NCBI GenBank assembly: GCA_048882485.1 | Contig: JBHLRP010000001.1 | Location: 64,001 to 128,000, forward strand | Direction: 5' to 3' | Length of the DNA: 64,000 nucleotides | Origin: Candidatus Thorarchaeota archaeon | GTDB lineage: Archaea > Asgardarchaeota > Thorarchaeia > Thorarchaeales > Thorarchaeaceae | Shown: in pieces, positions 1-23,005 of the stretch | How positions within the stretch are numbered: the first letter of the stretch is position 1 | Layout: each line of letters opens with the position of its first letter | Program-made: the position numbers and the translations under genes | The notes under the pieces: generated by a model | What the model was told of the DNA's origin: nothing | Database searches by the model: none | The model's input: the letters and a program-made list of their open reading frames with translations, nothing else

Positions 1-930
1 TACATTGATCAAAGTCAAAAAGTATGCCAATGTTAACATATAGCCATGTATTCTGGTAAATCTTTCCTCGTCATAGTACTCAAGCGCGGTACCCAGATAC
101 GCTAGGATCAATGCAGGAGCTCCCAAGTAGAATCCATAGTGCATTTGAATGGGCGGAATAGCCTGCACAGTGTATTGTAATGGTGGATCTGTGACAACCT
201 CGAAGCCATCTCCGTCTCTAGCGACGATTCGATATTCAATTGTTGTGCCAGGAGGGAAATTGGGAATTGTTGCTTGGTAGAATCCTCCAACTAGCTCCAT
301 GGTGACATTTGTCCATTCTATTGTCCAGTTGTCTCTGTATTGGAGTATCGCTGAAACAATTCCCGCCTCTGAACTCACATTAGCAGAAACCAAGACGCTC
401 TGATTGCTTAAGGGTGATGCTGGGGTCTGACTAAAACTAGAGATAGCTGGTCCCTCGCCCACATGAATGACATTGATGGTGATTGACGTAACATCGCCAT
501 GTCCATTATTGCCCGCGGCCCATATCTCAAGAGTATAGGAGCCTGCCAGACCAGGTGCAGTCAAAGTGTAATTTACTTCGAGTTCAAGAGGATCTGGGTC
601 CAAGTCTGGTGTTTCTCCATCGCGGACCAATCCATCATTTGGGATATTGAAGAGCGCATTTTGCTCCTCATTTCTTGGAAACTTCAGAACCAGTGTTGTT
701 GGTCCTGTTGTGGCTGTCGCTCGCACTATGAATGAGAACTCAGCTCCCTCTTCAACATCTACCGATGCATCTGTGCTCACAGTTATTGCAGTTGCTGTAG
801 TATGACATCCTGCTAATGAATCACAAGCTCTCTGTTCACTAACGAATGCAGTGGTGTACTGAGACGCTATGATGATGGCAAAAGCAACAGCTAACACAAC
901 TATAATAGCATATCTTGATTTTCGTTTCAA
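1..930 (-). CDS. Secreted/membrane protein (C-terminus truncated by window): signal peptide, atypical CX5CH heme-c-like domain, Ig-like domain, then His-containing transmembrane region
   Basis: Not in ORF track (no stop in window). Manual translation from TTG at 930 (GGTGA SD just upstream): MKRKSRYAIIVVLAVAFAIIIASQYTTAFVSEQRACDSLAGCHTT...YTLEIWAAGNNGHG...QMHYGFYLGAPALILAYLGTALEYYDEERFTRIHGYMLTLAYFLTLINV; open to position 1; N-domain is paralogous to that of 4256..7930. Confidence 0.85.
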   Translation of the reverse strand, partial: MKRKSRYAIIVVLAVAFAIIIASQYTTAFVSEQRACDSLAGCHTTATAITVSTDASVDVEEGAEFSFIVRATATTGPTTLVLKFPRNEEQNALFNIPNDGLVRDGETPDLDPDPLELEVNYTLTAPGLAGSYTLEIWAAGNNGHGDVTSITINVIHVGEGPAISSFSQTPASPLSNQSVLVSANVSSEAGIVSAILQYRDNWTIEWTNVTMELVGGFYQATIPNFPPGTTIEYRIVARDGDGFEVVTDPPLQYTVQAIPPIQMHYGFYLGAPALILAYLGTALEYYDEERFTRIHGYMLTLAYFLTLINV

Positions 931-1085
931 TGCTGTCACCAGAGGCTGTGCAGTAATTGCAGTGCGGCATTGGCCCCATTAAAAATCTTACCTGATGTGA
1001 CGCACTGGACAAACGAGCGATCGAGAATCTTAACGAAATGCAACCTCTTCCATTCATCTAGTTTCCTATCGTAACCTTAGGAGCT

Positions 1086-1571
1086 TCAGAATTCTGGATT
1101 TGTCCACTTGTAGAATTCGGGTCCTTTCCAGAATGAAAGTGTTTTGGGGATGACTTTTATTCCAATCCGGTTTCCAATAGGATAGCCAGTGCCTAGAAAT
1201 CTCGCATACTTGGAAAGATAATTCAAAGAAACCTTTTCGTCTACAAGCTCCATTTCAACTAGCATTGCACGACCACGGATCATCACGCCTTGGTTGTATG
1301 CTGGTGAAAGCGCACTCCGCATATCTACTGTTACACAGACCTTAGTGTTTCTTCTGATATTGCTTATCTTTTGACTGCGCTTTGTGGTTATCAGGAATAT
1401 TGTATTCGTAGCTTGATCCCACATATAGAACATCGCTGTCAAGTGGGGCAAGCATCCTGGCTCAGATGTCCCGAAATATGCAAAGAACCCATTCCTGAGA
1501 ATATACAATGCGCGCTCGGGAATCCTTCCAGCATGTATTACTTGGCTTTTTTCGGGCTTGATGAGTATCAT
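1086..1571 (-). CDS. Pyridoxamine 5'-phosphate oxidase-like split-barrel protein (flavin/F420/heme-binding)
   Basis: PHLTAMFY...ITTKRSQKISNIRRNTKVCVTVD...GVMIRGRA pattern typical of the PNPOx-like fold. Confidence 0.8.
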   Translation of the reverse strand: MILIKPEKSQVIHAGRIPERALYILRNGFFAYFGTSEPGCLPHLTAMFYMWDQATNTIFLITTKRSQKISNIRRNTKVCVTVDMRSALSPAYNQGVMIRGRAMLVEMELVDEKVSLNYLSKYARFLGTGYPIGNRIGIKVIPKTLSFWKGPEFYKWTNPEF

Positions 1572-1575
1572 TGTA

Positions 1576-2838
1576 TCACACTCTCAGCGAAGTTGGCTTT
1601 GCTTCTCTCCAATATGTCATCCTCACTGGATCTACTCTTACAAGAACTCTAGAGAGGAAGGGCTTGATTTGCCAGACTATTGGCAATTCATCCGACTTTT
1701 TGTCATAGTATCTCATATATCGAGGATATTTCGTTCGGAACCTCAGCCAAACTCTGATCATCCAGAGTCCATTGACGAAGATTTTCAGAATTCCTATCGG
1801 TGTGATTTTTCCCAACACTTCAGCATGTCCCCGAATCAATACCGCACGATTGTTCACAGGGTTGCGTCTGTCTCTCATGTCTACTAATACTGCAACGTTT
1901 CTATTCTTGTGAATTATCCTATATTTCGCTGACGCTATTGAAATCGCAAAATAGAGCGCTTTTCCATCATAGTTGAAAATCACTGGAGTCACGTGAGATT
2001 GGTTCTTCAAACACAGTGCAACATACGCGAAACGTTCATTCAACAGCACGCTTTCGACATCTGGGGGAAGCCATGGCACAGTTTCCATTGCCATCAGGGA
2101 GAGAGCTGATAGCCCAAGGATTGCCCCGAGAAATCCTAGTAGCCCGTAAAAGATCAGTGTATCAGCAGCAGCAATAGGGAGTACAAGTATAGCAGTTGCC
2201 CCCCAGTAGAGATTTACCGAATCAAGGAACTTCAGAGTTCTAACCTCGGAGTATGCCGTGTATTGCAGTCTTCGTCGTCGTCGAGCCGCGAGGCTAAGCC
2301 TTATTGATCGATTTGCTGCGAGCAATGTCGCGACGAACGATAAGCCAAGTCTGTAGCAAACATCCCACGCTAAAACCCCAATCAATATGAATAGTAGCGG
2401 ATTCCCGAAACCTGCCCCCAAAAAATCTTGTAGAATATGTTGATTATAGTAGACGTATGTCACAAAGAATACAAAGAAAGATACTCCACCAATCAGCTCG
2501 TAACCTCGATTCAACAGCAAGCGGCTTCTATACGCCTCAAGCACTTTTAGCTCAGCTTTATTGGTTGGATTCCTTAAGCGGCGAAGCAATGGCGCAATAA
2601 AAAGACATCCAGCAGACCAGACCACTGTATAGAGAATGGCTAAAGAACCGAAGATGGCTGTTTCAATGGGCATCTGCCAATAGAAAAAAGCTAAAATCCC
2701 AAGTCCCTCGACAAGCACTAATTGTGCGACCACGTCGAGGGTTGGTGGGAGCCAACTGAATGGGGGCACATGTTCTACTATTTCTTCGTATATCCACTTT
2801 CTATCCCTGACACGTTTTTTCTGGTATCCCGAAGTCAT
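1576..2838 (-). CDS. Multi-pass membrane protein fused to a C-terminal PNPOx-like domain
   Basis: About 6 hydrophobic segments, then SHVTPVIFNYDG...SAKYRIIHKNRNVAVLVD...AVLIRGHAE. Confidence 0.75.
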   Translation of the reverse strand: MTSGYQKKRVRDRKWIYEEIVEHVPPFSWLPPTLDVVAQLVLVEGLGILAFFYWQMPIETAIFGSLAILYTVVWSAGCLFIAPLLRRLRNPTNKAELKVLEAYRSRLLLNRGYELIGGVSFFVFFVTYVYYNQHILQDFLGAGFGNPLLFILIGVLAWDVCYRLGLSFVATLLAANRSIRLSLAARRRRRLQYTAYSEVRTLKFLDSVNLYWGATAILVLPIAAADTLIFYGLLGFLGAILGLSALSLMAMETVPWLPPDVESVLLNERFAYVALCLKNQSHVTPVIFNYDGKALYFAISIASAKYRIIHKNRNVAVLVDMRDRRNPVNNRAVLIRGHAEVLGKITPIGILKIFVNGLWMIRVWLRFRTKYPRYMRYYDKKSDELPIVWQIKPFLSRVLVRVDPVRMTYWREAKPTSLRV

Positions 2839-2907: not shown

Positions 2908-4131
2908 CTATTCGTATATCTCTTCAAGCCCATCCCAGGTGAATCCTAATGCCTCTGCGACTAGAACTGCTAGGTCCTTGACAATCTTGTTGGACCCAGA
3001 CAGCGGGAGTTGATCTTGCATGAAGTCCACACATGATGGACACGAAGCGGCGACGACTGAAGCACTAGTCTGTTCAATATCCTTCGCTTTCAGTTTGCTT
3101 ATTTGATTAGCAAATTCTGCATCTACTGCTCTGAGTACACCACCTGAACCACAGCAGTAACAGTTATTCTTGTTGTGCGGTAGCTCTTCAAACGTGACGC
3201 CGGGCAGATGTTCAAGAACTTTTCTTGGCTGCTCATAGAATCCCGAATTTCTCCCTGCATCACACCCATCATGGAATGTCACAGTCAGGTCTAGTGGGTT
3301 CGTAAACTCAAGCATGTTCCTATCTATTAGATCCTCAAAATACTCAGGACCGTACATGATCTGAAAAGGCGGATCGATGTCAAGAAACGCGTGGTATTCA
3401 TGTGCCCACATCTTATAGCAGCCCGGGCAATTTGTGATAACTCGTTCCACACCGAGTTCCTTGTACTTCTCAATATTATGCTCAGCAAATTGGCGAGCGG
3501 TTTCGAAGTCGCCTGTCATGATCATAGGCGCTCCACAACAGGCCTCGTCTTCGCCAAGAAAGGTGTACGACTCGCCAGCCTTGTCCATGATTAGCGTGGT
3601 GGCGATTGTCGCCTGAATGGAAACCCCTCGGAACGATGAAGCACATCCAAAGAAGAAGGCAGTCTTGGCCTCTTGACCCATCGTATCTAGAAGAGTGTCT
3701 TCATCTGGATGCCAATATGACCATCCCTCGACTCTATCCATCTGTGATTGTCCTTGAATGTTCTGGCTGTCAAGTAGAGTCTTCTTTGCCATCTCAAGTT
3801 GCTCAGGCCATAGGCCCATCTTCTGAAAGTCTGACCTCATTAATTGGTAGACCTGAACAAAAGGAATGTCCACTTGACATATCTCTTCACATCCTCCGCA
3901 GAGAGTGCATCCAAAGACAGCATCGCGGAGACCTTCCAGACCTTCCGAAGCCCTCAGGCTTCCCTGAGCAAGCGACCGTGCAATGATCATCTTACCCTTT
4001 CCAGAGTAGCTATCTCGACGCTTCACTTTGTAAGTTGGACAAGCGCCGTTACCGACTTGGCAAAAGCTACATTGAGCACACATATACGGCATGTCTTGAA
4101 GACCATACTTCTCCAGACTTTGGAATTTCAT
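2908..4131 (-). CDS. GlcF/HdrD-like (Fe-S)-binding protein: 2x[4Fe-4S] ferredoxin domain plus two CCG domains
   Basis: CAQCSFC-x6-CP, CTLCGGCEEIC; FFFGC..ACCG..NCPGC; HDGC..YCCG..SCPSC. Confidence 0.9.
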   Translation of the reverse strand: MKFQSLEKYGLQDMPYMCAQCSFCQVGNGACPTYKVKRRDSYSGKGKMIIARSLAQGSLRASEGLEGLRDAVFGCTLCGGCEEICQVDIPFVQVYQLMRSDFQKMGLWPEQLEMAKKTLLDSQNIQGQSQMDRVEGWSYWHPDEDTLLDTMGQEAKTAFFFGCASSFRGVSIQATIATTLIMDKAGESYTFLGEDEACCGAPMIMTGDFETARQFAEHNIEKYKELGVERVITNCPGCYKMWAHEYHAFLDIDPPFQIMYGPEYFEDLIDRNMLEFTNPLDLTVTFHDGCDAGRNSGFYEQPRKVLEHLPGVTFEELPHNKNNCYCCGSGGVLRAVDAEFANQISKLKAKDIEQTSASVVAASCPSCVDFMQDQLPLSGSNKIVKDLAVLVAEALGFTWDGLEEIYE

Positions 4132-4255: not shown

Positions 4256-7200
4256 TTATCTTCTCCTCCTCAACCAAATCTCAGATATTAGCAGAATCAC
4301 CAATACTGTTCCAGTCCATGAGAGAATTATGGTGAGGATTTGAGTTACAGGCAATGGAGGTGGTGGAACAGTGGGTTCTGTTGTAGTATCTGTGGTCGTG
4401 GAGGTCGTTGAGGTTGTGGTGGTAGCCGCCGCCAGCACGGTCACAATGACTTCATCCGAGGCAAAATTGCCTCCAATGTCCCAGACGACTATGGTGCAAT
4501 TGTAATCACCCACGGCCAGGCCATCAGCTGAAATGGAAATTGATTCTGCAGTGTCATTCCAGAGTCCCGTCTTTATCTCGATTTCATCTAGATAGATCTT
4601 GTAGCCTACTGGATGAAGATCTGAGGGGTTCCAAACAATTGCGTTTCCAGTTTCCCCCTCAGTATATGTCACATTGGGTGGTGAGTCTATTGTTGGGGGT
4701 GTTCCATCCACGACAGTGACATACACCGTGTCATTCGCCCAGTTTGCGTCGATGTCAAACACAACTATGGTGAAATTATGAACACCCAGGGCTAGTCCAT
4801 CCAAACTTTGCACAATGGTTTCAGAGGACGAGTTCCAAGTTCCGGACCTAAGAACAAGCTCGTTAAGATAGATGATGTAGCTCGCGGGATTGAGGTCTGT
4901 TGGATCCCAGCTGATTGCCAATCCCGGAGATCCTTCATCTATCAACATATCACTTGGAGCATCGATTACTGGTAGAGTCGCATCCGAAACAAAGACATCC
5001 ACTGAGTCAGAAGCTGAATTCCCGTCAAGATCATAGACCGCAAGAGTGAAGTTGTGTGTTCCTCGAGGTTGACCTGTAACTGAAATGGTGATAGTTTCCA
5101 GACTGGAATTCCACAACCCTGATTTGATAAGTACGTCGTTCAGATAGATCTCATATGATGATGGGTATGAGTCTGTAGGATTCCAGATAATGCTACCACC
5201 TGCATCGCCCTCATTGTAGTTGATATCTGGAGGAGTGTCTATTGTCGGGGGAGTGCCATCACTTACATAGACCATCACAGTGTCACTTCCTCTATTCCCT
5301 CCGATATCAAAGACCACCAATGTGAAGTTGTAGCTTCCTCTCAGCAGATTATCAACATTGATGGTCAATGTTTCCGAAGTTGAATTCCAAACTCCAGATT
5401 GGAGTAGCACTTCGTCCTTGTAGATTACAAAGTTGAACGGGTTCGTGTCGGTGGGATCCCAAGTAATGCTGCTACCGGGGTTTCCTTCATCATAATAGAC
5501 ATCTCCAGGGTTATCCACATTGGGCGGAGTGCCATCATAAACGGTGACCCATAGCATATCAGTCGCAGTATTTACGTCTTGGTCAGTCACGACTATAGTG
5601 AAATTATGTCGACCTAAGGCGAGTCCATCAATTAGTACTTGAATTAGCTCTGCACTTGAATTCCAGGCACCAGACTTGTAGAGTGTTCCGTTCCTGTAGA
5701 CAGCATAGCTCTGGGGGTTAAGGTCGAGGGGGTTCCAAATCAGATAATTGCCTATTGACTCCTGCACGACTTCTGTATCCTGCAAATCATTGATGGTGGG
5801 GACATCGGCGCTAAAGATGGTCACCCACACCTCATCAGATACAGTATTTCCTCCAATGTCAGTTACGACCAGGGTGAAGTTGTGGAGTCCAATAGCCAGA
5901 CCATCAAGGAATACAACAATAGTTTCCCCAGTCGAGTTCCAGATTCCTGACATTATCGGGGTTTCATTCTTGTAGACAACATAGCTGACTGGATGAAGGT
6001 CTGATGGAGTCCATGTGATATTGTGACCTCCTTCTCCTTCAGGGTAGAACGCATCCGCAGGTTCATCGATTGAGGGAAGCGTTCCATCTACCACTGTCAC
6101 ATCAAGCATATCAACTGCGGTGAACCCAGCTGAATCGTAAACGACTATTGTCAGATTATAAACACCAAGGCCTAGACCATCGACGGAGACTGTGATGGAT
6201 TCCGAGCTCGAGTTCCATAATCCGGACTTGAAGAGAACTTCTTCTAGGTAAATTTCATAATGCGAAGGATGCAGATCAAAGGGATTCCACGTAACATTAT
6301 TCCCGGGTGTGCCTTCGGATACCTGAGCATCGCTTGGCTGGTCAATAGTAGGTGCAGTCCCATCATACACCTCTACCCACACCGTGTCGTTCGCAGTGTT
6401 TAATCCAATATCGGCGACTAGTATTGTGAAATTATATAGCCCTAGACCCAATCCGCTTACTGAAATCGAGATTGTTTCGGAGGTATCATTCCACGTCCCT
6501 GATTTGACCTGAACGCTATTTCTGTAGATGATATAGTTCAGAGGATAGCTGTCTGTTGGATCCCAGGTAACTGACTGAAGAGGTGTGCCTTCAGCGTATG
6601 TCACATTCAGGGGACTATCAATATTCGGCGGAGTACCATCGCCTACTGTAACCCGGACCACATCATTTGCTGGGTTCCCTCCTATATCGAAAACCTCCAG
6701 CATATAATCATATACCCCCAGTGATAGCCCTTCGACTGAAACCGCGATTGTTTCCACACTCGAGTTCCAAGTTCCAGATTTGATTGGAACTCCATCTCTA
6801 TAAATGGTGTAATTCAAGGGATGAAGGTCTGTTGGATCCCAAGTTATGCCAATGCCAGTTTCTCCTTCGTTATAGCTGACATCCGTTGGACTATCGATTG
6901 TTGGTGGAGTGCCATCGGAAACAATCACCCAGACCGTGTCCGTGACCGCATTAGAGCCAACATCAGTGACTTCAATTGTATAGTTATACTCCCCAAGGCT
7001 CTCTCCTTCAACCAATATTGAAATCGTTTCAGCTGAGCTATTCCAAGCGCCTGATTTGATTGGTGCGCTCTCCCTATAGATTACGTAGCTAGAGGGATGG
7101 AGATCTGTTGGGTCCCAGACGATTGTGCTTCCGCTTGCCCCTTCATCATATGTGACATTAGCGGGGCTGTCGACCAACGGAGCGGTGCCATCATAGACTG

Positions 7201-7930
7201 TCACTCCAACCTGATCAGAAGCATTATTGCTTGCTGCATCAAAAACTGTAATAGTAAGAGTGTGAGCACCAAGATTGAGGGACCCAAGCATTGCAGTGAT
7301 TGGAGAGCCATCCCATGAACCACTCTGGAATGCGGCGCCATTATCCAGAATCTCATAACTGCTGGGATTCGCATCATTGGGGGTCCAAGTCACACTTGCA
7401 CTGCCATTCCCTTCAGCAATTATCTGGTCAGCTGGACTGTCAATCGTTGGGGGTGTTGAGTCAGACGAGGTCACCGACACTGTAACATCAAGACTAGCAG
7501 AATGCCCTCCTTTGGCTGCTGCCCAAATTCTCAATATCCAGGTTCCTACTGCTATTGGGGTGAACGCAAACGTAACAGTCATCTGGCCAATATTCGAATT
7601 TGTGTCCCCTGGGTCGTTGTCAAGAATTGACTGGTCTGTGAACGAGAACTGATTGTTGTCCGCCCATCCACTCAAAACAGCAGTTGCTGTGTCACCAGCT
7701 TTTGTGGCAGCGCTTGATGATGATACAACAAGCGAGAATGGTGAGCCTAAATCTGCGTCTACTGTACCTGTCGCATTTGATGAAATAGTCACATCGGAGG
7801 GACTAGTAGTGTGGCAGGTTCCGCATTCAGCTGTAGAGTCAGGCTTTCCTAATGCCGTATAGGCGCCGACTAGGCTAATTGCCAGAACGCAGAAAGCAAT
7901 GATTATTGCTGTTTTCTTAATGGACTTCAA
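4256..7930 (-). CDS. Cell-surface protein: signal peptide, CxxCH heme-c motif domain, 11 Ig-like repeats, Thr/Pro linker, C-terminal TM anchor with RRRR tail
   Basis: ECGTCH at 7811-7825; repeats begin DGTPPxIDxP; many N-x-S/T sequons; C-terminal ILTIILSWTGTVLVILLISEIWLRRRR. Confidence 0.88.
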   Translation of the reverse strand: MKSIKKTAIIIAFCVLAISLVGAYTALGKPDSTAECGTCHTTSPSDVTISSNATGTVDADLGSPFSLVVSSSSAATKAGDTATAVLSGWADNNQFSFTDQSILDNDPGDTNSNIGQMTVTFAFTPIAVGTWILRIWAAAKGGHSASLDVTVSVTSSDSTPPTIDSPADQIIAEGNGSASVTWTPNDANPSSYEILDNGAAFQSGSWDGSPITAMLGSLNLGAHTLTITVFDAASNNASDQVGVTVYDGTAPLVDSPANVTYDEGASGSTIVWDPTDLHPSSYVIYRESAPIKSGAWNSSAETISILVEGESLGEYNYTIEVTDVGSNAVTDTVWVIVSDGTPPTIDSPTDVSYNEGETGIGITWDPTDLHPLNYTIYRDGVPIKSGTWNSSVETIAVSVEGLSLGVYDYMLEVFDIGGNPANDVVRVTVGDGTPPNIDSPLNVTYAEGTPLQSVTWDPTDSYPLNYIIYRNSVQVKSGTWNDTSETISISVSGLGLGLYNFTILVADIGLNTANDTVWVEVYDGTAPTIDQPSDAQVSEGTPGNNVTWNPFDLHPSHYEIYLEEVLFKSGLWNSSSESITVSVDGLGLGVYNLTIVVYDSAGFTAVDMLDVTVVDGTLPSIDEPADAFYPEGEGGHNITWTPSDLHPVSYVVYKNETPIMSGIWNSTGETIVVFLDGLAIGLHNFTLVVTDIGGNTVSDEVWVTIFSADVPTINDLQDTEVVQESIGNYLIWNPLDLNPQSYAVYRNGTLYKSGAWNSSAELIQVLIDGLALGRHNFTIVVTDQDVNTATDMLWVTVYDGTPPNVDNPGDVYYDEGNPGSSITWDPTDTNPFNFVIYKDEVLLQSGVWNSTSETLTINVDNLLRGSYNFTLVVFDIGGNRGSDTVMVYVSDGTPPTIDTPPDINYNEGDAGGSIIWNPTDSYPSSYEIYLNDVLIKSGLWNSSLETITISVTGQPRGTHNFTLAVYDLDGNSASDSVDVFVSDATLPVIDAPSDMLIDEGSPGLAISWDPTDLNPASYIIYLNELVLRSGTWNSSSETIVQSLDGLALGVHNFTIVVFDIDANWANDTVYVTVVDGTPPTIDSPPNVTYTEGETGNAIVWNPSDLHPVGYKIYLDEIEIKTGLWNDTAESISISADGLAVGDYNCTIVVWDIGGNFASDEVIVTVLAAATTTTSTTSTTTDTTTEPTVPPPPLPVTQILTIILSWTGTVLVILLISEIWLRRRR
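4433..7462 (-). repeat. Intragenic array of 11 ~92-codon Ig-like repeats
   Basis: Consensus DGTPPxIDxPxDxxYxEGxxGxxIxWxPxDxxPxxYxIY...SGxWNSSxETI...GLxxGxYNFTxxVxDxxGNxAxDxVxVxV counted 11 times over 1010 aa. Confidence 0.9.
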
Positions 7931-7984
7931 TGGAATGCCGCCTGCGTGTCTTCTTTGTTGAAGCTTCTAAGCACGCTGCCCCTC

Positions 7985-8065
7985 CAATGATTCATTTATA
8001 TTACAATTGGTAATTTATATCCACCTTTTTGTTTCTTTTATTATTTTTGTGAAATTATCGAATTC
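7985..8065. promoter_or_regulatory. AT-rich divergent promoter region between the cytochrome-like cluster and the FAD-NuoB gene
   Basis: Two TTTATAT TATA-like boxes flanking the short inverted repeat ATTAC-AATTG-GTAAT; T-rich tract. Confidence 0.4.
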
Positions 8066-8200
8066 ATGGTGCTATGAGCTAGATAATTGGCAACCCGATA
8101 AAGCATGGAATTGATAGCTAAGCCTTCTCGCTAGGTTTTTATGGAGCATGATTCCACGACCGTGACCTGAGAGCAGCTTCGTCTCTTGGAGAGAGTCCAC

Positions 8201-10671: not shown

Positions 10672-10760
10672 GGGATCAACTCAGCGTCTACAATTCTCAA
10701 ATGTCTAGTTATGTCTAGTTCATTCTAAAATGGGAAGGCTTGCGATGAGAGCATGGGCTC

Positions 10761-12587: not shown

Positions 12588-12907
12588 TGGTCCCGCTTTC
12601 TTGGTATCTTGCTGTTGCATTCATCCTAATTGGCCTAGGAGCCTATGGAATGATGGTGAAGAGGAACCTCATTAGAATCCTGATCGGGGCGGAAATTATG
12701 GGGAACGGAGTTAGCATCGCTATAGCTGCTTTTGCGGTCTACAGCCCTACCTTTACGCTGACAGGACAGGCTCTCATCATTCTCATGATATCAGTTGCCG
12801 CAGCTCACACTGCTTTAGCCTTGGTTTTGATGCTTGCTTACAATAGGCGGCATGGAACAGTGGACCTGGGAAGACCAATCTCACAGGAGGATAAGATCGA
12901 TGTCTGA
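12587..12907 (+). CDS. nuoK: Complex I subunit K
   Basis: KRNLIRILIGAEIM; ISVAAAH (the canonical second Glu is His here). Confidence 0.92.
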   Translation: MVPLSWYLAVAFILIGLGAYGMMVKRNLIRILIGAEIMGNGVSIAIAAFAVYSPTFTLTGQALIILMISVAAAHTALALVLMLAYNRRHGTVDLGRPISQEDKIDV

Positions 12908-14554: not shown

Positions 14555-14565
14555 TGGGAGGTGTC

Positions 14566-15699
14566 ATGTTGCAGATAGATTTCTTTGCATGGCTTCAAGG
14601 AATCCCTCAATGGCTATATGGAGTCATTCAGTGGTTGTTCGACATTGTCAGTGGAATCTTCTACTGGATATGGGGCATCTTCACATGGATTTGGGCAGCT
14701 CTATTCGATGTAGCCAACTTCTTCTTCCTAATTCGAGCAGTGCTATTCCCAGGTCTTGTCTTCATTCTCATGACAATCATCTTTGCTGTTTGGTATACGC
14801 GCAAGCTCTGGGGCAGAATTCAAGACAGGCGTGGTCCATTTCACTTGGGTAAGTACGGAGGACTTCAACTCTTCGCTGATGCGATTAAGCTCGTAGGAAA
14901 GGAAACCATAATCCCTGACAAGGCGAAACGCTGGATGTATCGGTTCCTTCCATCACTATTGCTGTTGGTTGTCTTAATCCCATTTGCGTTCATCCCATGG
15001 GATCCAATTTGGTACATTGCTGATTTATCGGTCGGTCTAGTGCTAGTCTTCGCATTTCTAACTGCAGTGCCCATAGTAGCATTGCTATCTGGTTGGATAA
15101 GTGGGTCCAAGTATACACTCATAGGTGGTTTCAGAGCAGCTAATAATCAGTTTGCTTGTGAGATTCCATTAATCATCTCATCAGTAGGCCCGGCGATGCT
15201 GGCTGGTTCTTTGAGTGTGATGGGAATCGCAATGGCTCAAACAAATGTCTGGTTCATATTCCTTCTACCAATCAATGTAGCCACATTCCTTGTGGCCGCG
15301 ATAGGCTCTGTGGGAACCTTTCCATTTGATGCTCCTGTGGCTGACTCGGAGGTTATCTTTGGCTGGAGGACAGAGTTCAGTGGCATCTACTTCACACTAA
15401 CCTATTTCGCAGAGTTTGCTGAGCAGGCTCTCTATTCAGCACTCATTGTTGCACTGTTCCTTGGTGGGTTCCATGGACCGGCTTTCTTGCCAGGAAGCGT
15501 GATATTCATCATCAAGTTCCTGATAGTATTCTTCTTCTTCGTCGTTGTGACGTCATCGTTCCATCGGCTAAGACAAGACCAGATTGTGTACTTCTGCTGG
15601 AAGTATCTACTTCCATTGTCAATACTGAATGTTGTGCTTGTGATGTTGGGAATAGCCAACATCCCCTTGCTACAAGCAGTTCTTGGAATAGGAGGGTAG
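14566..15699 (+). CDS. nuoH: Complex I subunit H
   Basis: RKLWGRIQDRRGP, GGLQLFADAIKLVGKE, PFD..DSE..GWRTEFSG; GGAGGTG SD before ATG 14566. Confidence 0.93.
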   Translation: MLQIDFFAWLQGIPQWLYGVIQWLFDIVSGIFYWIWGIFTWIWAALFDVANFFFLIRAVLFPGLVFILMTIIFAVWYTRKLWGRIQDRRGPFHLGKYGGLQLFADAIKLVGKETIIPDKAKRWMYRFLPSLLLLVVLIPFAFIPWDPIWYIADLSVGLVLVFAFLTAVPIVALLSGWISGSKYTLIGGFRAANNQFACEIPLIISSVGPAMLAGSLSVMGIAMAQTNVWFIFLLPINVATFLVAAIGSVGTFPFDAPVADSEVIFGWRTEFSGIYFTLTYFAEFAEQALYSALIVALFLGGFHGPAFLPGSVIFIIKFLIVFFFFVVVTSSFHRLRQDQIVYFCWKYLLPLSILNVVLVMLGIANIPLLQAVLGIGG

Positions 15700-15705
15700 A
15701 GCAAG

Positions 15706-16137
15706 ATGGGATTCTTCAGAAATCTAGGTGACATATTCCAGATATTGAGACACGTATTCCGTCAGGTGATGTCCCGTCCATTCACGTACTTCTATCCATT
15801 TGAGGACAGGGAATATCCAGAGAGGACTCGTGGAAGGCATATCTTTGTGCGTGAGAATTGCACATCATGCATGCAGTGTGTGCGGGCTTGTCCTGTTGTC
15901 GCTATTAGCATCGATAAGAGTGACAAGCATTTCGAGAAAGACGCCGCTCTATACTTTGACTATACGCGGTGCATATTCTGTGGACTATGCGTTCAAGCCT
16001 GCAGGTTTGATGCTTTGTTTCACACTCAGGTTGTTGATATCAGCGAAGGAGAGAGGGAGGACTTGCTCTATGGTCCTGACAAGATAGAAACTCTCGATCG
16101 AGACCCGCTTGAGTGGCGTGGAAGGAGGTTCCGTTGA
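15706..16137 (+). CDS. nuoI: Complex I subunit I (2x[4Fe-4S])
   Basis: CTSCMQCVRACP and CIFCGLCVQACR. Confidence 0.93.
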   Translation: MGFFRNLGDIFQILRHVFRQVMSRPFTYFYPFEDREYPERTRGRHIFVRENCTSCMQCVRACPVVAISIDKSDKHFEKDAALYFDYTRCIFCGLCVQACRFDALFHTQVVDISEGEREDLLYGPDKIETLDRDPLEWRGRRFR

Positions 16138-17654
16138 TGCAACTAGCCTTCGAGTTCCCATTCATGACCTTGTCCTTGCTAGTCCTCTTCATTGGAGGGC
16201 TCTTGATCTACCTCCTTCGCGGTCGACTCGAAAAGACATCAGGGAAAATTGCTGTTGGCTTCTCGGCGGTAAGCGCATTGCTAATGGTGCCTCCCTTCTA
16301 TCGTATCATGGTTGAAGGTGGTCGGGCTGCTGAGAAGGTCAGCTGGTCAGTTGTACTTGGAGAGTTTGGTCTCTACCTAGATGAGATTGCTTTTCCAATT
16401 ACATTCGCAGTTGTTGTCCTAGGATTCCTTTCGGTTATCTATGCTGTAGGCTATACTGAGCATACTGAGAATAAGCCCACTTTCTTTGCAAACACATTGT
16501 TCTTCATCATGGGCATGCAAGGCGTGACGCTTGCAACCAATTTGCTGGAATTCTTCATCTTTTGGGAGATCATGCTTGTCCCATCGTACTTCCTAATTCT
16601 GTTTTGGGGCTTGCCTGAAACCCGAAAACGAACTGCCATCAAGTTTTGGCTCTATACACAGGCTGGAGCGGTCTGTATTTTGATCGCCCTAGGTCTCTTG
16701 TACTTCTTCACAGGCACCTTTGAGCTCTACACAATTCTGGCAATGGCTCCTGCCATCTGGTCAGACCTCCGACTGCTGCAGATTATTTTCATCTTGTTCG
16801 CTGCTGGCTTCCTAGTCAAAATGGCGGCCTTCCCTCTGCATTGGTGGTTACCTCCAGTCCACGCCGAAGCTCCGACTCCTATATCGGTTCTGCTATCCGG
16901 AGCCATGATTGAAACCGGTGCTTATGCTCTCGTCCGTTTCGGAATCGTTACGCTTGGACCTGCAGCTGCCTCGCTCTCATTCTGGATTGGAGTACTTGGT
17001 GTTGCCACAATGTTCTACGGAGGAGCTATGGCGCTTGTACAGAAAGACATCAAGAGACTGCTGGCTTACTCATCAGTTTCCCAGATGGGCTATGTCCTCT
17101 TTGCCCTGGGCATGATTACCACATTCGGTGTAGCTGGCGGTCTGTTTCATCTCATCAATCATGCCTTCAGCAAGGGTGTCTTATTTATGACTGCTGGAGC
17201 CGTGATTCATCAGACTCATCTGAGGGATGTTGACAAGATGGGCGGTCTCTCAAACAAGATGCCCATCACTGCATTCGCTGCAGCTATCGGTGCAATGAGC
17301 ATTGCAGGGAGTCCTCCCCTCTCTGGATTCGCTAGTGAATGGATGATGTTTCTAGGGGGCTTTGATGCTGTTCTGATGGGACCAGGAGGTCTCGCCCGAC
17401 CTGAGTTCTTTTTCCTATCCATTTTGGCTGTATCAAGCTCCATTGTGAGTGCGGGCTACATGCTTCGGTATCTTTGGAAAGTCTTCCTTGGACCAAATCC
17501 AACAGAACTGGAGGATGTGAAAGAGAGTTCCAACTGGATGACTGCCCCAATGGTTGTCCTTGGTTTTCTCATAGTGTTGTTTGGAGTATTCCCAGGTTTG
17601 GCACTGGATGTCATTTTACCTGGTGTACAAGAAATAGCTACTCTGCTTCCATGA
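16137..17654 (+). CDS. nuoM: Extra NuoM-like antiporter subunit (M1)
   Basis: FFIFWEIMLVP, AIKFWLYT, VKMAAFPLHWWLP.HAEAPTP, KRLLAYSS, GFASEW; ATG 16137 with GGAGGT SD. Confidence 0.85.
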   Translation: MQLAFEFPFMTLSLLVLFIGGLLIYLLRGRLEKTSGKIAVGFSAVSALLMVPPFYRIMVEGGRAAEKVSWSVVLGEFGLYLDEIAFPITFAVVVLGFLSVIYAVGYTEHTENKPTFFANTLFFIMGMQGVTLATNLLEFFIFWEIMLVPSYFLILFWGLPETRKRTAIKFWLYTQAGAVCILIALGLLYFFTGTFELYTILAMAPAIWSDLRLLQIIFILFAAGFLVKMAAFPLHWWLPPVHAEAPTPISVLLSGAMIETGAYALVRFGIVTLGPAAASLSFWIGVLGVATMFYGGAMALVQKDIKRLLAYSSVSQMGYVLFALGMITTFGVAGGLFHLINHAFSKGVLFMTAGAVIHQTHLRDVDKMGGLSNKMPITAFAAAIGAMSIAGSPPLSGFASEWMMFLGGFDAVLMGPGGLARPEFFFLSILAVSSSIVSAGYMLRYLWKVFLGPNPTELEDVKESSNWMTAPMVVLGFLIVLFGVFPGLALDVILPGVQEIATLLP

Positions 17655-17665
17655 GGTGATCGACA

Positions 17666-19984
17666 ATGTTGCTTGGACTACCCTATTGGCTTATCCTCGT
17701 CATTCCGCTGCTTGGCTCTCTCCTCGTTCCACTTGTTGGAAAATTCAGTGAGCGCGCGAGAGACTGGACCCCTGCAATCCTCATGGGAGCCTCTATGGTT
17801 CTATGCTGGTCGCTTCTACCTGAGATTGGAAACCCGACCCAGACCACGCACTGGATGTGGATTGAGGTCTTAGGACTCGAGTTCGAGGTTCTCCTGGACC
17901 CGCTCTCAGTTGTTATGGGGGTTCTAGCCAGCACTCTGTGTTTTCTCATCTATGTCTACTCTACAGAGTACATGGCTCATGAGGGCGATCGTGACCGCTT
18001 CTTCTTCCTCATGCTGGCATTCGGCGGTGGTATGCTGACGCTAGTGCTCAGCAACAACCTTCTGATTGCATTTATCGGATGGGAGATCATGGGATTTTGC
18101 TCCTATGGTTTGATAGGATTCTGGAATGACAAGAGGAACCCTCCCGAAACCGACCCATCAGACATTCACTCCACAAACCCGCTTCTTCAATTCAAGACCG
18201 AGGGACAGTACAACACCCACTGCGGGACCAAGGCATTCGTCGTCACGAGAATCGGTGATGCATTCATGTTGGGCGGTATCCTGATTCTGTTCGTCTTCAC
18301 TGGCACCTTTTCCTTCACTGAGATGGCGGCTGATGCCCAATCATGGTGGAGCACTATGGCAGGTATCGGGATGCTTGTGCCGACATTCCTACTCATCTTC
18401 ATGGGTGCAATCGGCAAGTCCGGACAGGCTCCACTGCAGGTCTGGTTGCCGGAAGCAATGGCTGGCCCGACAAGCGTTTCGGCTCTCATTCACGCTGCGA
18501 CGATGGTCAAGGCGGGTGTCTATATCACCGCTCGATTCCTGGTCACAATGGTGTCAGCAGCCGGTGGTGAGGGCAATGGTGGTGAACATATCGCTGGACT
18601 TCAGGCAATTGGTTTTGAAGCAGCGTTGACCTTTTTCATCTTTGTAGCAATCATCGGCGGTATTACTGCTCTCATGACAGCGACCATGGGAATGGTCTCA
18701 AACGAGCTCAAGCAGATACTGGCATTCTCAACACTCAGCCAGCTTGGATACATGATGCTCTCACTAGGTGTGGGCGGCGTCCTTCAGGCTGAGGGACTTC
18801 ACTTCACTGATGCATACTTGAGCGGTGTGATGCATGTGATATCGCATGGTGCATTCAAGGCCCTTCTATTCCTTGCATCAGGAGGTGTTATACACGCCGT
18901 CCATACCAAGTTCATCACCAAGATGGGCGGTCTGAAGCAATACATGCGGAAGACCTTCATCGTGATGTGGATTGGTGTGCTTGCCCTCGCAGGTATCCCA
19001 CCGTTCTCAGGGTTCTGGTCAAAGGACTCTATCATCGAGTATGCCTATGAATTGGCGGTTGAATGGCCAAATCCGATAGGTTGGATGCTATTCTTCTTTG
19101 CTGTCTTAGCCGCAGCCTGCACGATATTCTATAGCATTCGACTCATGGGCATCACTTTCTATGGACCTTCCAAGGAGAGTCATGACCATCACGAGTCACA
19201 CAGCTCACACGAGAATGAGGATTCAGAAGAGCCTGAAGACCTACATTATGATGGCTTAGAGGAAAATGAAGAATCTCATGATAGTGACTCAGAGAAGCAA
19301 GAAGAACCACATGACAACCACTCCGAAGAGCAGCATCACTCAACTCCTCAAGATCCGGGTCCGGCAATGATGGTGCCATTATATCTACTAGCGGCCTTTA
19401 CTGTCATTGCATTCCTTGTCTTCCCGTTTGTTCAGAACATTGTACTTGAAGAGAGTCACTCTTGGGCTGAGAACTTAGCGCACATGATAGAGGTCAAGCT
19501 GACCTACCCAGGAATTGTGCCTTTCATGATAACGCTAGGCGCGCTCGCCCTCGGCGGAGTTCCTGGATACATGATGTACATCAGGGGTGCTGACTCTCCC
19601 AATACTTGGGTGCCGGAGAAGGGCTTCCGAAGGAGATTTCACAATTTCCTAAAGCATCGCTGGTACATCAATGAATTCTACTATTGGATATTGAACAAAT
19701 TCCTGAGTGCGGCAGAGCGTTATCGAGTGAATGTTGACAACAAAATCATTGATGGCATCGACTTCAAGTCTGCTGACGCAGGGAAAGGTCTAGCAACGAA
19801 GCTGAAATGGTTTGATGATAATGTGGTTGATGGCTTTGCTGAGGGGGTTTCTACTTACAGTGTTGCAGCTTCAGAGTCCAGTCAGTCTGCACAGACTGGT
19901 CGAGTCAATGACTATGTGGGAGTGATAATGTTCGGGATTGGAATTCTGGTCATAATCGTTCTATTATCTCTGGGGGTGCTCTAG
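17666..19984 (+). CDS. nuoL: Complex I subunit L with extended lateral helix and His/acid-rich loop
   Basis: GWEIMG, RIGD, GKSGQAPLQVWLPEAMAGPT, HAATMV, GFWSKD, QTGRVNDY plus final TM. Confidence 0.93.
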   Translation: MLLGLPYWLILVIPLLGSLLVPLVGKFSERARDWTPAILMGASMVLCWSLLPEIGNPTQTTHWMWIEVLGLEFEVLLDPLSVVMGVLASTLCFLIYVYSTEYMAHEGDRDRFFFLMLAFGGGMLTLVLSNNLLIAFIGWEIMGFCSYGLIGFWNDKRNPPETDPSDIHSTNPLLQFKTEGQYNTHCGTKAFVVTRIGDAFMLGGILILFVFTGTFSFTEMAADAQSWWSTMAGIGMLVPTFLLIFMGAIGKSGQAPLQVWLPEAMAGPTSVSALIHAATMVKAGVYITARFLVTMVSAAGGEGNGGEHIAGLQAIGFEAALTFFIFVAIIGGITALMTATMGMVSNELKQILAFSTLSQLGYMMLSLGVGGVLQAEGLHFTDAYLSGVMHVISHGAFKALLFLASGGVIHAVHTKFITKMGGLKQYMRKTFIVMWIGVLALAGIPPFSGFWSKDSIIEYAYELAVEWPNPIGWMLFFFAVLAAACTIFYSIRLMGITFYGPSKESHDHHESHSSHENEDSEEPEDLHYDGLEENEESHDSDSEKQEEPHDNHSEEQHHSTPQDPGPAMMVPLYLLAAFTVIAFLVFPFVQNIVLEESHSWAENLAHMIEVKLTYPGIVPFMITLGALALGGVPGYMMYIRGADSPNTWVPEKGFRRRFHNFLKHRWYINEFYYWILNKFLSAAERYRVNVDNKIIDGIDFKSADAGKGLATKLKWFDDNVVDGFAEGVSTYSVAASESSQSAQTGRVNDYVGVIMFGIGILVIIVLLSLGVL

Positions 19985-19985
19985 A

Positions 19986-21530
19986 GTGCAGCTCGGATTC
20001 ATCCAAGACCTCATCGCAATGTTGCCAATGGACAATATACTACCACTGATGCTATTTGCTCCATTAGTCGCAGCATTCTTTGCCTACATACTCGGTGCAA
20101 GAGGGGGTAGGGCTCTCACGCTCATTGTCACATTCGTTGAACTCCTGCTTTCGCTTGTCCTCATTGTAGCAATTCTGCCGAATCCAGGAGCTATGTGGTT
20201 TGAATGGTCGTTCACACTTAGCGATGTGCAATTCGGGAGCTGGAATGCTCTCCTCCAGATATACCTAGGTGTTGACGGAATATCCGTTGCCATGGTGTTT
20301 CTTTCAAACCTCGTGGTCTTCATTGCAGCACTCAGTTCAAACCATATCAAGAAATCACAGCATCTGTACTACATGTTCTTCCTGATGCTCCAGACAGGTC
20401 TGCTTGGCGTATTCATGTCATTTGATCTGATCAGCTTCTTCATCTTCTGGGAATTGGTCTTGATACCGATGTTCTTCATAATAGGAAGATGGGGCGAAGA
20501 GGGATGTGAACACGCAGCTGTCAAGTTCTTCATCTACACACATCTCGGCTCAGCTGTGATGTTGGTCTCATTCATGGCACTGTTCTTCCTAGGACCCGGT
20601 ACATTCAACATGATTGCGATCAAGGCTGCACCAATTGCAATCAACATTCAGATTGGCTTTGCACTGGCTGTCTTTCTGGGGGCTGGCGTCAAGCTTCCTG
20701 TCTTTCCATTGCACAACTGGCTTCCGTGGGCCCACGTCAAGGCGCCAACTCCTGGTTCAGTGATACTCGCTGGAATACTCTTGAAGATGGGTGGATACGG
20801 GTTCATTAGACTGGGTCTTTGGATGGTTCCGCAAGGATTTGCTCGACTCAGTATCCCATTCGCTGTCCTCGCGGTCTTCACATGCATCTATGCAGCCTTT
20901 GTGGCAATGGGTCAGACTGACGTTAAGTCAATGGTAGCCTATACATCAATCAACCACATGGCATGGGTGTTGCTTGGAGTTGCCATCGGAGGATTTGCCA
21001 TCGGAGGTGGAGCCACAGAGGGCCAACTCTTCTCAGCCAGCCTTGCAGTTCAAGGCGCAGTATTCATGATGGTATCCCATGGGATGATATCCTCTGTCAT
21101 GTTCATTCTTGCCGGCCAGCTGAAGTACTCGGCTGGAAGCAGACTGATTCCTGATGTCATGGGTCTTATGACGAAAGCTCCTAGAATGTCCGCTGTCTTT
21201 ATCCTCGCGGTCTTTGCAGCCTTTGGGTTGCCCGGAATGAGCGGATTCATTGCAGAGGCCCTTGTACTGTTTGGGTCAGTGAACATCTACATATGGTCTG
21301 GCTTCATTGCATTTGGAATCTTTGTCACGGTAGGATATCTCCTTTGGACCCTGAACCGAATTGTGTTTAGTGATCCAGACCCTGAGAAGGAGGTCACTGA
21401 AGCACCATGGAGTGATCTCATTGCACCAATCTTGATGATGATACCAGTAATCATCCTCGGGCTTTGGCCAGATCTTGTGCTCAATCTAGTGATACCGATA
21501 GTCAACGATATGATAGGGGTGATTCCATAA
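19986..21530 (+). CDS. nuoM: Complex I subunit M (canonical, M2)
   Basis: FFIFWELVLIPM, VKLPVFPLHNWLPWAH, LLKMGGYG, GFIAE. Confidence 0.92.
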   Translation: MQLGFIQDLIAMLPMDNILPLMLFAPLVAAFFAYILGARGGRALTLIVTFVELLLSLVLIVAILPNPGAMWFEWSFTLSDVQFGSWNALLQIYLGVDGISVAMVFLSNLVVFIAALSSNHIKKSQHLYYMFFLMLQTGLLGVFMSFDLISFFIFWELVLIPMFFIIGRWGEEGCEHAAVKFFIYTHLGSAVMLVSFMALFFLGPGTFNMIAIKAAPIAINIQIGFALAVFLGAGVKLPVFPLHNWLPWAHVKAPTPGSVILAGILLKMGGYGFIRLGLWMVPQGFARLSIPFAVLAVFTCIYAAFVAMGQTDVKSMVAYTSINHMAWVLLGVAIGGFAIGGGATEGQLFSASLAVQGAVFMMVSHGMISSVMFILAGQLKYSAGSRLIPDVMGLMTKAPRMSAVFILAVFAAFGLPGMSGFIAEALVLFGSVNIYIWSGFIAFGIFVTVGYLLWTLNRIVFSDPDPEKEVTEAPWSDLIAPILMMIPVIILGLWPDLVLNLVIPIVNDMIGVIP

Positions 21531-23005
21531 TGCTACAGGTTTCCACAATAATCGATGCTATCAGCGACATCTTGAGTCCCTTCTTTGCACTAGTCCCAGC
21601 GGATTGGCTAGTATCATTACCAGCTTTGACGCTCATCCTATTCGGAATCTTGGCACTCATTGTAGGAATGAGAAGAAGTCCTTTGGCAGTCAGTTTCATT
21701 GGCATTGCCCTTGCAGGCTTTGAGATGATTCTCATTGACCCGGGTTCTTCCTTTGGAGGACTATTTGTAAGAGACATGTTTGGTGATTTCTTCATCTGGA
21801 TCATTCTGGTTGTCGCATTCATAATACTGCTTTCGTCGACGACATACGGTGGAAATAAGGGTACATACAACTTTCTCCTCATGATGTCATTTGCTGGCGC
21901 AATTTGGGTCGTTATGGCAACCGATCTTGTGGCGCTGTTTTTGGCATGGGAACTCATGAGTACGCCGACATATGTGCTTGTTGCGCTAGGGCCCCACAGA
22001 GGAGCTATTGATGGAGCTACCAAGTACTTCGTCATGGGACTCCTATCGTCAACTCTCATCCTATTTGGAATCGCGATTGTTTATGGTACAACAGGTGCCA
22101 CAAGCTTTGCCGCTGTTGCTGCATTTGTTAGTGTCGTCTGGAGCGCCGCTTCTCCGTCTGCCTACGCAATGCTTCTGTCCATGGTGCTGTTCCTGATCGG
22201 TTTTGGATTCAAGGTCGGTGTGTTCCCAGGATGGATGTGGGTCCCCGACGCATATGCAACTGCTGACGGAAGCGTCACAGGATATCTGGCCGGTGCAACC
22301 AAGAAGACAGGTGTAAGTGCCCTCCTTCGGATACTACTCGTTGCATTTGTTGCAGCACAAATGGAATGGATGCCTGTCGTAGTCACTATCTCGATTCTTT
22401 CCATGATCATTGGGAATATTCTTGCACTCGCTCAGCGCAACATCATGAGAATGTTAGCCTTCTCATCCATCATGATGATGGGTCTACTCTTCGTGGGGAT
22501 TGCAGCCGGAACGGCCTTTGGAGCAGCAGCTGCGATGTTTACCGCGTTTGCCCATGCACTCATCAAGACGGGCGCGTTTATCCTGGTTTGGGCATTGGCT
22601 GTTTCCATTGGAAAAGAGGTCACATATGATGATTTGAAAGGACTCAGTACTCGTGCTCCGATTGTTGCTCTATTGATGGCAATAATGGTCTTTGCTCTAG
22701 CAGGCGCACCATTCACAGCAGGATTCTGGTTCAAGTGGTTTCTATTGCCTGGAGCTGCAGTCGATGCTGGGCTTTGGTGGTTGGCGATAATTGCTGTGCT
22801 GAACTCAGTATTTGCACTTGGCTATTACTTGAGAATCCTAAGGTATTGCTACTTCATGGAACCAACAGAAGGTACAACATTACGCATACCGACGATTCCT
22901 CTTGTTGCGGTGCTACTTGCAGTTGTGGGTACAATAATGATTGGCGTCTTTCCGGGTCTAATCCTGGACTATGCATCGTTGGCAGCTGGAGTCCTCGTCC
23001 CATAG
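21530..23005 (+). CDS. nuoN: Complex I subunit N
   Basis: AWELMS, KYF, GFKVG..WVPDAY, GFWFKW; TAATG overlap and GGGGTGA SD. Confidence 0.92.
   Translation: MLQVSTIIDAISDILSPFFALVPADWLVSLPALTLILFGILALIVGMRRSPLAVSFIGIALAGFEMILIDPGSSFGGLFVRDMFGDFFIWIILVVAFIILLSSTTYGGNKGTYNFLLMMSFAGAIWVVMATDLVALFLAWELMSTPTYVLVALGPHRGAIDGATKYFVMGLLSSTLILFGIAIVYGTTGATSFAAVAAFVSVVWSAASPSAYAMLLSMVLFLIGFGFKVGVFPGWMWVPDAYATADGSVTGYLAGATKKTGVSALLRILLVAFVAAQMEWMPVVVTISILSMIIGNILALAQRNIMRMLAFSSIMMMGLLFVGIAAGTAFGAAAAMFTAFAHALIKTGAFILVWALAVSIGKEVTYDDLKGLSTRAPIVALLMAIMVFALAGAPFTAGFWFKWFLLPGAAVDAGLWWLAIIAVLNSVFALGYYLRILRYCYFMEPTEGTTLRIPTIPLVAVLLAVVGTIMIGVFPGLILDYASLAAGVLVP

Follow-up and report, generated by a model that had tools for sequence, protein, structure and literature searches.

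Two apparently separable redox gene systems adjoin at a complex-I-like locus of a Thorarchaeota archaeon

The stretch of DNA considered here (the window: 64,000 nucleotides, bases 64001-128000 of the 345-kb contig JBHLRP010000001.1, or C1, of the Candidatus Thorarchaeota archaeon assembly GCA_048882485.1, which comprises 3.96 Mb and is 90.5% complete) carries, at its left end, two divergent sets of redox genes. Rightward runs an operon for a complex-I-like pump whose NuoB subunit is fused to a flavin adenine dinucleotide (FAD) domain; leftward run genes for an iron-sulfur (Fe-S) protein, two PNPOx-like proteins and two exported proteins with a candidate haem-binding "head" (Table 1). The genes were mapped from a listing of open reading frames (ORFs) and Pfam matches and compared with ~36 Thorarchaeota loci and ~300 genomes of Asgard archaea. 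A sequence-only reading of the same DNA had suggested that the whole divergent locus might be one electron-transfer system. All the features that it listed were found at the positions claimed, and its five co-oriented leftward genes are real, but their count is an artefact of the window edge: the leftward run comprises 14 genes over ~27 kb, nine of them beyond the edge, and gaps of 124, 146 and 225 bp within it suggest several transcription units. Below, we argue for a reading that we consider moderately probable, namely, that the region holds two systems which are related yet separable and happen to lie side by side.

Table 1. Features of the divergent locus (positions in the window; TM, transmembrane; Ig, immunoglobulin; aa, amino acids)
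Feature	Position	Strand	Description
g1	1-939 (full gene 258 nt longer, past window start)	-	head + one Ig-like domain + 4-TM His-rich domain
g2	1086-1571	-	small PNPOx-like protein; PNPOx_N 41.5 bits (cut-off 28.1)
g3	1576-2838	-	~six TM helices, DUF7530 (65.7 bits) + PNPOx-like domain
g4	2908-4131	-	HdrD/GlcF-like Fe-S protein; Fer4_8 + two CCG domains
g5	4256-7930	-	stalked head, 1224 aa
divergent intergenic region	7931-8185	.	BRE/TATA-like element CTCGCTAGGTTTTTATG at 8127-8143
g6	8186-10141	+	FAD_binding_4/FAD-oxidase_C + amphipathic linker + NuoB
g7	10138-10671	+	small membrane protein, acidic tail; conserved between g6 and nuoA
g7b	10761-11120	-	119 aa, three TM, opposite strand; position conserved
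nuoA	11455-11913	+	
nuoJ	11913-12587	+	
nuoK	12587-12907	+	
nuoC	12834-13421	+	
nuoD	13418-14554	+	
nuoH	14539-15699	+	
nuoI	15706-16137	+	
four antiporter-like subunits	16113-17654, 17666-19984, 19986-21530, 21464-23005	+	

The intergenic region that separates the two sets measures 255 bp when TTG starts are used. Its element CTCGCTAGGTTTTTATG lies ~50 nucleotides (nt) upstream of g6 and is near-invariant across 18 aligned loci, irrespective of the left neighbour. Ahead of g4, a clear TATA-like element could not be made out.

The g6 product combines a FAD dehydrogenase part (FAD_binding_4, 138.5 bits; FAD-oxidase_C, 28.2 bits) with a NuoB part whose alignment to Thermus Nqo6 starts at residue 24 and in which the four N2 cysteines (CC...C...C) are retained. 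This fusion is full-length in ~33 Thorarchaeota loci and present in every searched genome that has a close nuoH orthologue; none was found outside Thorarchaeota in the species-representative collection scanned. The g4 product, with 19 Cys residues and two [4Fe-4S] motifs, matches CCG over two stretches (109 bits) and Fer4_8 (39 bits), and has as relatives in the PDB HdrB and an Fe-S-binding reductase. That g4 is the cognate partner of the NuoB-fused FAD domain, a link already drawn in the sequence-only reading, appears to be a solid conclusion from synteny, from matching paralogue similarities and from an unfused operon. Specifically, g4 is found in the leftward cluster in 31 of the 32 assessable loci, mostly as the immediate divergent neighbour of g6. 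By similarity to the g6 FAD domain, the FAD paralogues of this genome, labelled like the CCG genes below by their length in aa, rank in the order FAD574 > FAD568 > FAD518 > FAD508, and g4 ranks their adjacent CCG partners in that same order, as expected if FAD/CCG pairs were duplicated jointly. In one genome (G017), the next gene after g4, in the same orientation, is an unfused 503-aa FAD orthologue (C3:116441-117928) that ends PPLKWLRNR-stop, exactly at the NuoB junction of the fusion. This unfused gene may be either a fission product or the ancestral state; in none of the genomes G017, G018 and G021, which are 94-96% complete, was a close nuoH orthologue found.

The best solved relatives of the fused FAD domain are LctD (7qh2_C) and the mitochondrial D-lactate dehydrogenase (LDHD, 8jdb). 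In the alignment to 8jdc, GHVGDGNFH is matched by GYVNSPNAV in g6, and EHGIG by AHSTG, so that Tyr, Val and Ala occupy the places of the His, His and Glu that we take to be the LDHD metal site. Canonical D-lactate dehydrogenase chemistry is ruled out for g6 by the lack of this presumed metal triad.

The complex I core subunits NuoA-D and NuoH-N are all encoded, NuoB being supplied solely by the g6 fusion, and no NuoEFG genes were found in the operon (8186-23005), to which the search for them was confined. In NuoD, the His of the quinone site is kept (AHGW), the position of the quinone-ligating Tyr is taken by Met (ERLCM), and among solved structures the best relative is subunit 6u8y_L of the Pyrococcus MBS rather than a NuoD of complex I. 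Quinone biosynthesis genes, to which the sequence-only reading had looked for support, did not provide it: MqnA was not found in the genome and no MenB match rose above the cut-off. A UbiA-family gene and two UbiD genes are present and are ambiguous for quinone synthesis, because their neighbours could equally be archaeal lipid genes; the segment C1:39.8-44.3 kb, ~20 kb upstream, encodes two polyprenyl synthases, a geranylgeranyl-reductase-like protein and the UbiA-family protein. The small membrane proteins g7 and g7b have no Pfam match at E-values up to 5.

We designate g4, g6, g7 and g7b, together with the 11-subunit complex-I-like pump that has no NuoEFG at the locus, System A and propose that they form the core; this set is present in every Thorarchaeota genome searched that has a nuo operon. 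The NuoB-fused FAD domain and the HdrD-like g4 would make up a flavin/Fe-S module tethered to the pump, which would either give electrons from an organic substrate to the NuoI/NuoB clusters or receive electrons from them. In view of the relatives and the metal site of the FAD domain, the Met in NuoD and the MqnA and MenB negatives, an output role of the flavin/HdrD module is as plausible as an input role.

The remaining leftward genes have a different character. The g5 protein consists of an N-terminal helix, an Ig-like head (nt 7451-7930) with the motif CGTCH at residues 36-40 (nt 7811-7825), eleven 92-aa Ig-like repeats, a Thr-rich linker and a C-terminal TM helix. The g1 protein (398 aa at full length) has the motif CDSLAGCH, that is CX5CH, at residues 39-46 (nt 802-825), one Ig domain and four TM helices; its 4-TM domain aligns with a stand-alone 137-aa paralogue, with His267, 298, 343 and 346 invariant in both. 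Orthologues of g1 were found in the same genus only and the protein has no Pfam match, just as none was obtained for the heads and the 4-TM domains in general at E-values up to 5, NarI and HdrE types included. In an alignment of 28 heads, Cys36, Cys39, His40 and six more positions are invariant, while the spacing of the two Cys across heads is CX2, CX4 or CX5. Over the whole family the motif can be written as C-X(2-6)-CH, giving way to H-X(2-4)-CH or a lone CH in another Asgard family (f9), and more distant relatives retain Cys-His alone; throughout, the Cys-His pair stands at a fixed distance after the N-terminal hydrophobic (export) helix. A His after the WAA motif, proposed earlier as the distal haem ligand, is ruled out since it is not conserved among the aligned heads. 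The AlphaFold2 (AF2) model of the head, with a confidence score (pLDDT) of 88.7, shows a helix and a beta-sandwich, with lower confidence in the motif loop. When 1.84 billion representatives were searched with a profile (E <= 0.001), 404 matches were obtained, of which ~70 span the whole head, always at the N-terminus, in three architectures: head plus anchor (~200 aa), head plus Ig stalk (up to 1235 aa) and head plus four TM helices (285-400 aa). Some loci carry several such proteins: in one Thorarchaeota genome (L049:760-9686), three tandem stalked heads with CX4CH, CX4CH and CX2CH motifs lie between g6 and g4, and another (L050) has two short paralogues. The CxxCH heads form a real family with an Ig-like sandwich; the head motif probably carries one covalently bound haem, and the His-rich 4-TM domain of g1 probably binds haem b.

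The connection of these heads with FAD/Fe-S modules and with the cytochrome c maturation (Ccm) genes is real and bears out, by gene neighbourhoods and by co-occurrence, the earlier linking of surface CxxCH proteins with redox partners. Three times in this genome a head lies directly upstream of a FAD/CCG module: g5 > g4; short head > 165-aa membrane protein > CCG395 > FAD574; and g1 > FAD508 > CCG374 (HdrD-like). The last of these comes to light past the window edge, where g1 overlaps the next FAD gene and therefore belongs, as first gene, to the FAD508/CCG374 module. The nine genes left of g1 are, in order, FAD508, CCG374, a gene for an amine-oxidase-like flavoprotein, CCG434, FAD568 and then the short-head module, in which the head is a 251-aa, short-anchored protein; this short-head arrangement recurs, by coordinates, in nine relatives. 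Still further left is a third module type, in which the 137-aa 4-TM protein is followed by FAD518 and CCG405. Amid the FAD/CCG modules, on the plus strand (C1:49007-52273), a PadR regulator gene is followed by genes for an exported EB_dh/DOMON-like protein, a 640-aa membrane protein with cupredoxin and Fer4_5 (NosR/NapH-like) domains, and a COX2-like cupredoxin.

The same association is seen in genomes that are not Thorarchaeota. Relatives of a head-4TM protein from the library occur in 59 of 301 Asgard genomes, including 19 of the 68 genomes of family f9; members of the cluster to which this protein belongs are labelled Hodarchaeota or Promethearchaeota archaeon at NCBI, and all are annotated as hypothetical. 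In f9, the gene after head-4TM encodes a FAD508-type flavoprotein in 11 of 12 loci, and ccmF was detected in all five genomes tested, in four of them no more than 0.6 kb from the head-4TM gene. Both of the larger f9 regions examined (G088 and G203) have the order head-4TM > FAD > CCG and no nuo genes. In G088 (C20:8001-27000), a short head, ccmC, a small OB-like gene, ccmB, ccmA and an 896-aa stalked head precede ccmF, which is divergent to, and adjoins, head-4TM > FAD504 > CCG454; there are no PNPOx genes, and the first Cys of the heads is replaced by His (H-X2-3-C-H).

Cytochrome c maturation genes, named as a check in the sequence-only reading, are indeed present in the Thorarchaeota genome under study: ccmA, B, C, E and F lie at C1:34-40 kb (locus C1:30015-40000, ~24-34 kb left of the window), beside a FMN reductase gene and a 488-aa Cytochrom_C552/NrfA-like ORF with six CxxCH motifs, the only ORF of the genome with at least three of them. 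Among 41 related genomes, 17 possess Ccm, all in three genera (genus codes g1, g5 and g7, unrelated to the gene labels used here). Heads were found in 13 of these 17 and in none of the 24 Ccm-less genomes, and g3 is confined to the same three genera. The fused complex extends more widely. Three genomes that are 95-97% complete (G019, G023 and G024) have g6, g4 and nuoH, but neither Ccm nor heads nor the PNPOx pair with g3 were found in them; the reverse case is offered by G004 (one contig, 77% complete), where ccmF and a 4TM-FAD module are present and no orthologue of g6 or nuoH was found. The gene g5 adjoins g6 in only 12 of the 36 loci; on the g6 tree, built from 34 fused sequences and the unfused G017 orthologue, the state "g5 beside g6" requires at least 7-8 changes, which is no better than with shuffled labels, and g5 was not found in the deepest fused lineages.

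The PNPOx-like match of g3 only just passes, with 27.5 bits where the cut-off is 27, and its combination with DUF7530 recurs in a 112-member archaeal Atlas cluster; in most loci g3 is followed by g2. The PNPOx-like domain of g3 is probably cytoplasmic, and the membrane part has no conserved His, so that a function of g3 as a haem-bearing membrane carrier is not evident. As a b-type cytochrome, g3 is ruled out on the same ground.

We propose that the heads and their modules constitute System B, an accessory set which, among Thorarchaeota, appears only in the genera with Ccm and which is also present in another Asgard family. Its heads would be exported Ig-fold domains with a C-X(2-6)-CH site and probably one covalent haem each, anchored in three ways (directly, on a stalk as in g5, or by fusion to the 4-TM His-rich domain as in g1), and each stands directly upstream of a paralogous pair of FAD dehydrogenase and HdrD-like protein. 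Such modules probably carry electrons across the membrane, connecting a flavoenzyme of the cytoplasm with the cell surface in one direction or the other, and g5 and the g3-g2 pair would be genes of this type inserted beside g4. Systems A and B are evolutionary relatives and neighbours; in the gene architecture, gene pairing, phyletic patterns and motif conservation demonstrated above there is no evidence of one fixed electron chain. That haem is bound, that electrons cross the membrane and that A and B exchange any of them is what we infer. Of the proposal that the locus is one system, the link of g4 to g6 and the nuo genes and the association of the heads with FAD/Fe-S modules and Ccm have stood up, but an obligatory chain that includes complex I has not: the heads and the PNPOx pair are separable from nuo, the near-complete genomes named above keep the fused complex without them, g5 is an unstable insertion, and in f9 the set of heads, Ccm, FAD and CCG occurs without nuo. 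The electron path then envisaged, from a substrate through FAD, Fe-S clusters, a membrane carrier and haems to an external acceptor or the reverse, fits g1-FAD508-CCG374 well, but the findings do not tie it to complex I.

Several observations weigh against this two-system reading. Where present, g5 is always inserted between g6 and g4, and g3-g2 always follow g4; given these positions, A and B may be functionally bridged in the genera concerned. The 41 genomes of the phyletic counts are close kin and represent few independent events. As regards the heads, no distal ligand of the motif is conserved, and Foldseek relates the head model to generic Ig-like folds only (complement MG domains, the S-layer protein SbsC, CARDB), with no known cytochrome fold in the best 50 of more than 500 matches; in the AF2 model of g1, made from a six-sequence alignment, the membrane part has a pLDDT below 50 and the geometry of its His residues is unreadable. 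Finally, the supply of haem is problematic, so that the haem and cytochrome c machinery expected from the earlier reading is borne out in its maturation genes but not in its synthesis genes: this genome yielded neither ALAD nor porphobilinogen (PBG) deaminase, and ALAD was found neither in any of 25 Thorarchaeota-family genomes searched nor in four Ccm-bearing f9 genomes that are 95-100% complete. The ALAD negatives beside Ccm point to tetrapyrrole auxotrophy; haem would then be scavenged, unless the Ccm-like genes serve another role.

The constant positions of g5 and g3 lend themselves to a quite unlikely alternative, in which the whole divergent locus is one chain in this genus: electrons would pass from a substrate via the g6 FAD, the g4 Fe-S clusters, g3 and the haems of g5 and g1 to an acceptor, or in reverse, coupled to the pump. 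Indeed, g5-g4-g3 together with g6 follow the layout seen in the paralogous modules, with a head, a CCG protein, a membrane protein and a FAD protein, g3 is restricted to genomes with heads and Ccm and yet always directly follows g4, the insertion site of g5 does not vary, and with no clear TATA-like element upstream of g4 co-transcription of g5 and g4 is possible. This chain, however, would have to run through g3, whose membrane part has no conserved His and whose PNPOx domain is predicted to be cytoplasmic, and it would end in a single haem atop 11 non-redox Ig domains, which is no wire and at best a tethered shuttle. Moreover, g5, which would have been gained or lost frequently, is missing from two thirds of the loci, the promoter element of g6 is independent of the left neighbour, and the three near-complete genomes have the fused complex with no heads, g3 or Ccm. 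The opposite possibility, that the surface proteins are not cytochromes at all but surface or adhesion proteins whose Cys/His site serves for a metal or a disulfide, with redox neighbours that merely share a genomic island, is very improbable. It would account for the Ig-like fold with complement MG, SbsC and CARDB as nearest structures, for Atlas leads to Reeler-like domains (scores <0.9), for the variable motif spacing with loss of the first Cys in relatives, and for the failure to find the haem synthesis genes searched, but the Cys-His pair is invariant and at a fixed distance after the export helix, Ccm is present in 13 of 13 head-bearing genomes while Ccm-less genomes have no heads, the 4-TM-fused head is close to ccmF in four of five f9 genomes, and fusion to a His-rich 4-TM domain with constant FAD/CCG neighbours is hard to square with an adhesin.

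A further alternative, which we hold to be unlikely, leaves System B aside and can be reconciled with the two-system reading: the flavin/HdrD module would be an electron exit, such that reduced ferredoxin feeds NuoI, N2 and then g4 and the FAD, which would pass the electrons to a soluble acceptor (a disulfide or a 2-oxoacid), the surface proteins being uninvolved. The missing MqnA and MenB matches, the Met in NuoD (its His being kept) with MBS as best solved relative, the two HdrD-like CCG domains of g4 and the lack of the His-His-Glu triad in the FAD domain all agree with an exit, and the proposed Fpo-like/HdrD complex offers a precedent (PMC7374477). Against it, there is no known acceptor and no known mechanism that couples pumping to such a bypass, and the UbiA-family gene, two polyprenyl synthases and two UbiD genes would allow for an unrecognised membrane carrier.

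If, as in the two-system reading, A and B are taken apart, the pump does not require the surface proteins, and experimenters are told which genes to co-express or purify jointly. Asgard archaea are usually modelled as fermenters that pass reducing power to their partners as H2 or formate, and their disposal of electrons is central to syntrophy models of the origin of eukaryotes. The locus adds two pieces of apparently undescribed hardware, a complex-I-like pump with a flavoenzyme built into its NuoB and an HdrD-like protein as partner, and a probable surface cytochrome family coupled via a membrane protein to sister flavoenzymes; no description of the NuoB fusion or of the head family was found in the literature, with limited coverage of subscription journals. 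Standard CXXCH screens would largely miss the head family, and the occurrence of Ccm in genomes where haem synthesis genes were not found draws attention to haem scavenging or an unexpected role of Ccm. One may go further and suggest, tentatively and as something possible rather than probable, that Asgard archaea (Thorarchaeota and the Hodarchaeota-labelled family) own a dedicated surface electron-exchange apparatus, which in some Thorarchaeota is plugged into the flavin module of the pump. If so, its cytochromes would be Ig-fold proteins matured by Ccm, with one haem each and in some cases a stalk of up to 11 Ig domains; His-rich 4-TM proteins would wire them to cytoplasmic flavoenzyme/HdrD modules, and the apparatus would permit direct electron exchange with minerals or partner cells.

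Elsewhere in the window, a gene for a Ras-family small GTPase (23212-23850) directly follows the nuo operon; further right are an ORF of 1835 aa (28978-34485) for which Pfam gave nothing at E <= 1e-5, two tandem TFIIB paralogues (37798-39854), a LarA-like gene with the N-terminal domain of lactate racemase (44415-45812), and, running past the window end, another very large ORF (57878-64000; more than 2041 aa).

When the modules of System B are compared with known systems, the inferred plan of head, 4-TM domain and CCG protein resembles that of Tmc/Hmc/DsrMKJOP and of HdrED, in which an extracytoplasmic cytochrome c is combined with a His-ligated haem b subunit in the membrane and an HdrD-like CCG subunit in the cytoplasm (PMC10861901). 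Unlike in Tmc/Hmc/DsrMKJOP, the fold of the head is Ig-like and not that of cytochrome c3 or DsrJ; unlike in these systems and HdrED, the 4-TM domain has no NarI/HdrE Pfam match, a FAD dehydrogenase is always in the module, and the quinone pathway was not found here, as far as MqnA and MenB were searched. With its four invariant His, the 4-TM domain may work like a NarI/HdrE-type cytochrome b without belonging to the family. The heads themselves share with the clients of streamlined archaeal System I (CcmABCEF) the export helix followed by Cys...Cys-His, with ccmA, B, C, E and F in the genome, but differ from them in the CX2/CX4/CX5 spacing, in the replacement of the first Cys by His or its absence in relatives, and in the beta-sandwich domain.

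As to System A, the pairing of a FAD_binding_4 + FAD-oxidase_C flavoprotein with a GlcF/HdrD-like Fe-S protein is that of the GlcDF glycolate oxidase and of D-lactate dehydrogenases, from which g6 differs in the lack of the presumed His-His-Glu site of LDHD and in a membrane-hugging C-terminal extension fused to NuoB. Fpo/Fqo and cyanobacterial NDH-1 are also among the nearest pumps without NuoEFG. In Methanomassiliicoccales, a head-less Fpo-like complex together with HdrD has been proposed to act as a ferredoxin:heterodisulfide oxidoreductase (PMC7374477); the Thorarchaeota locus likewise combines an 11-subunit pump that has no NuoEFG at the locus with an HdrD-type CCG protein. Unlike in the methanogen system, however, NuoB is here covalently fused to a GlcD-like FAD domain, the gene of the HdrD-like protein is a conserved divergent neighbour, the pump has four antiporter-like subunits, and the Tyr of the quinone site is replaced.

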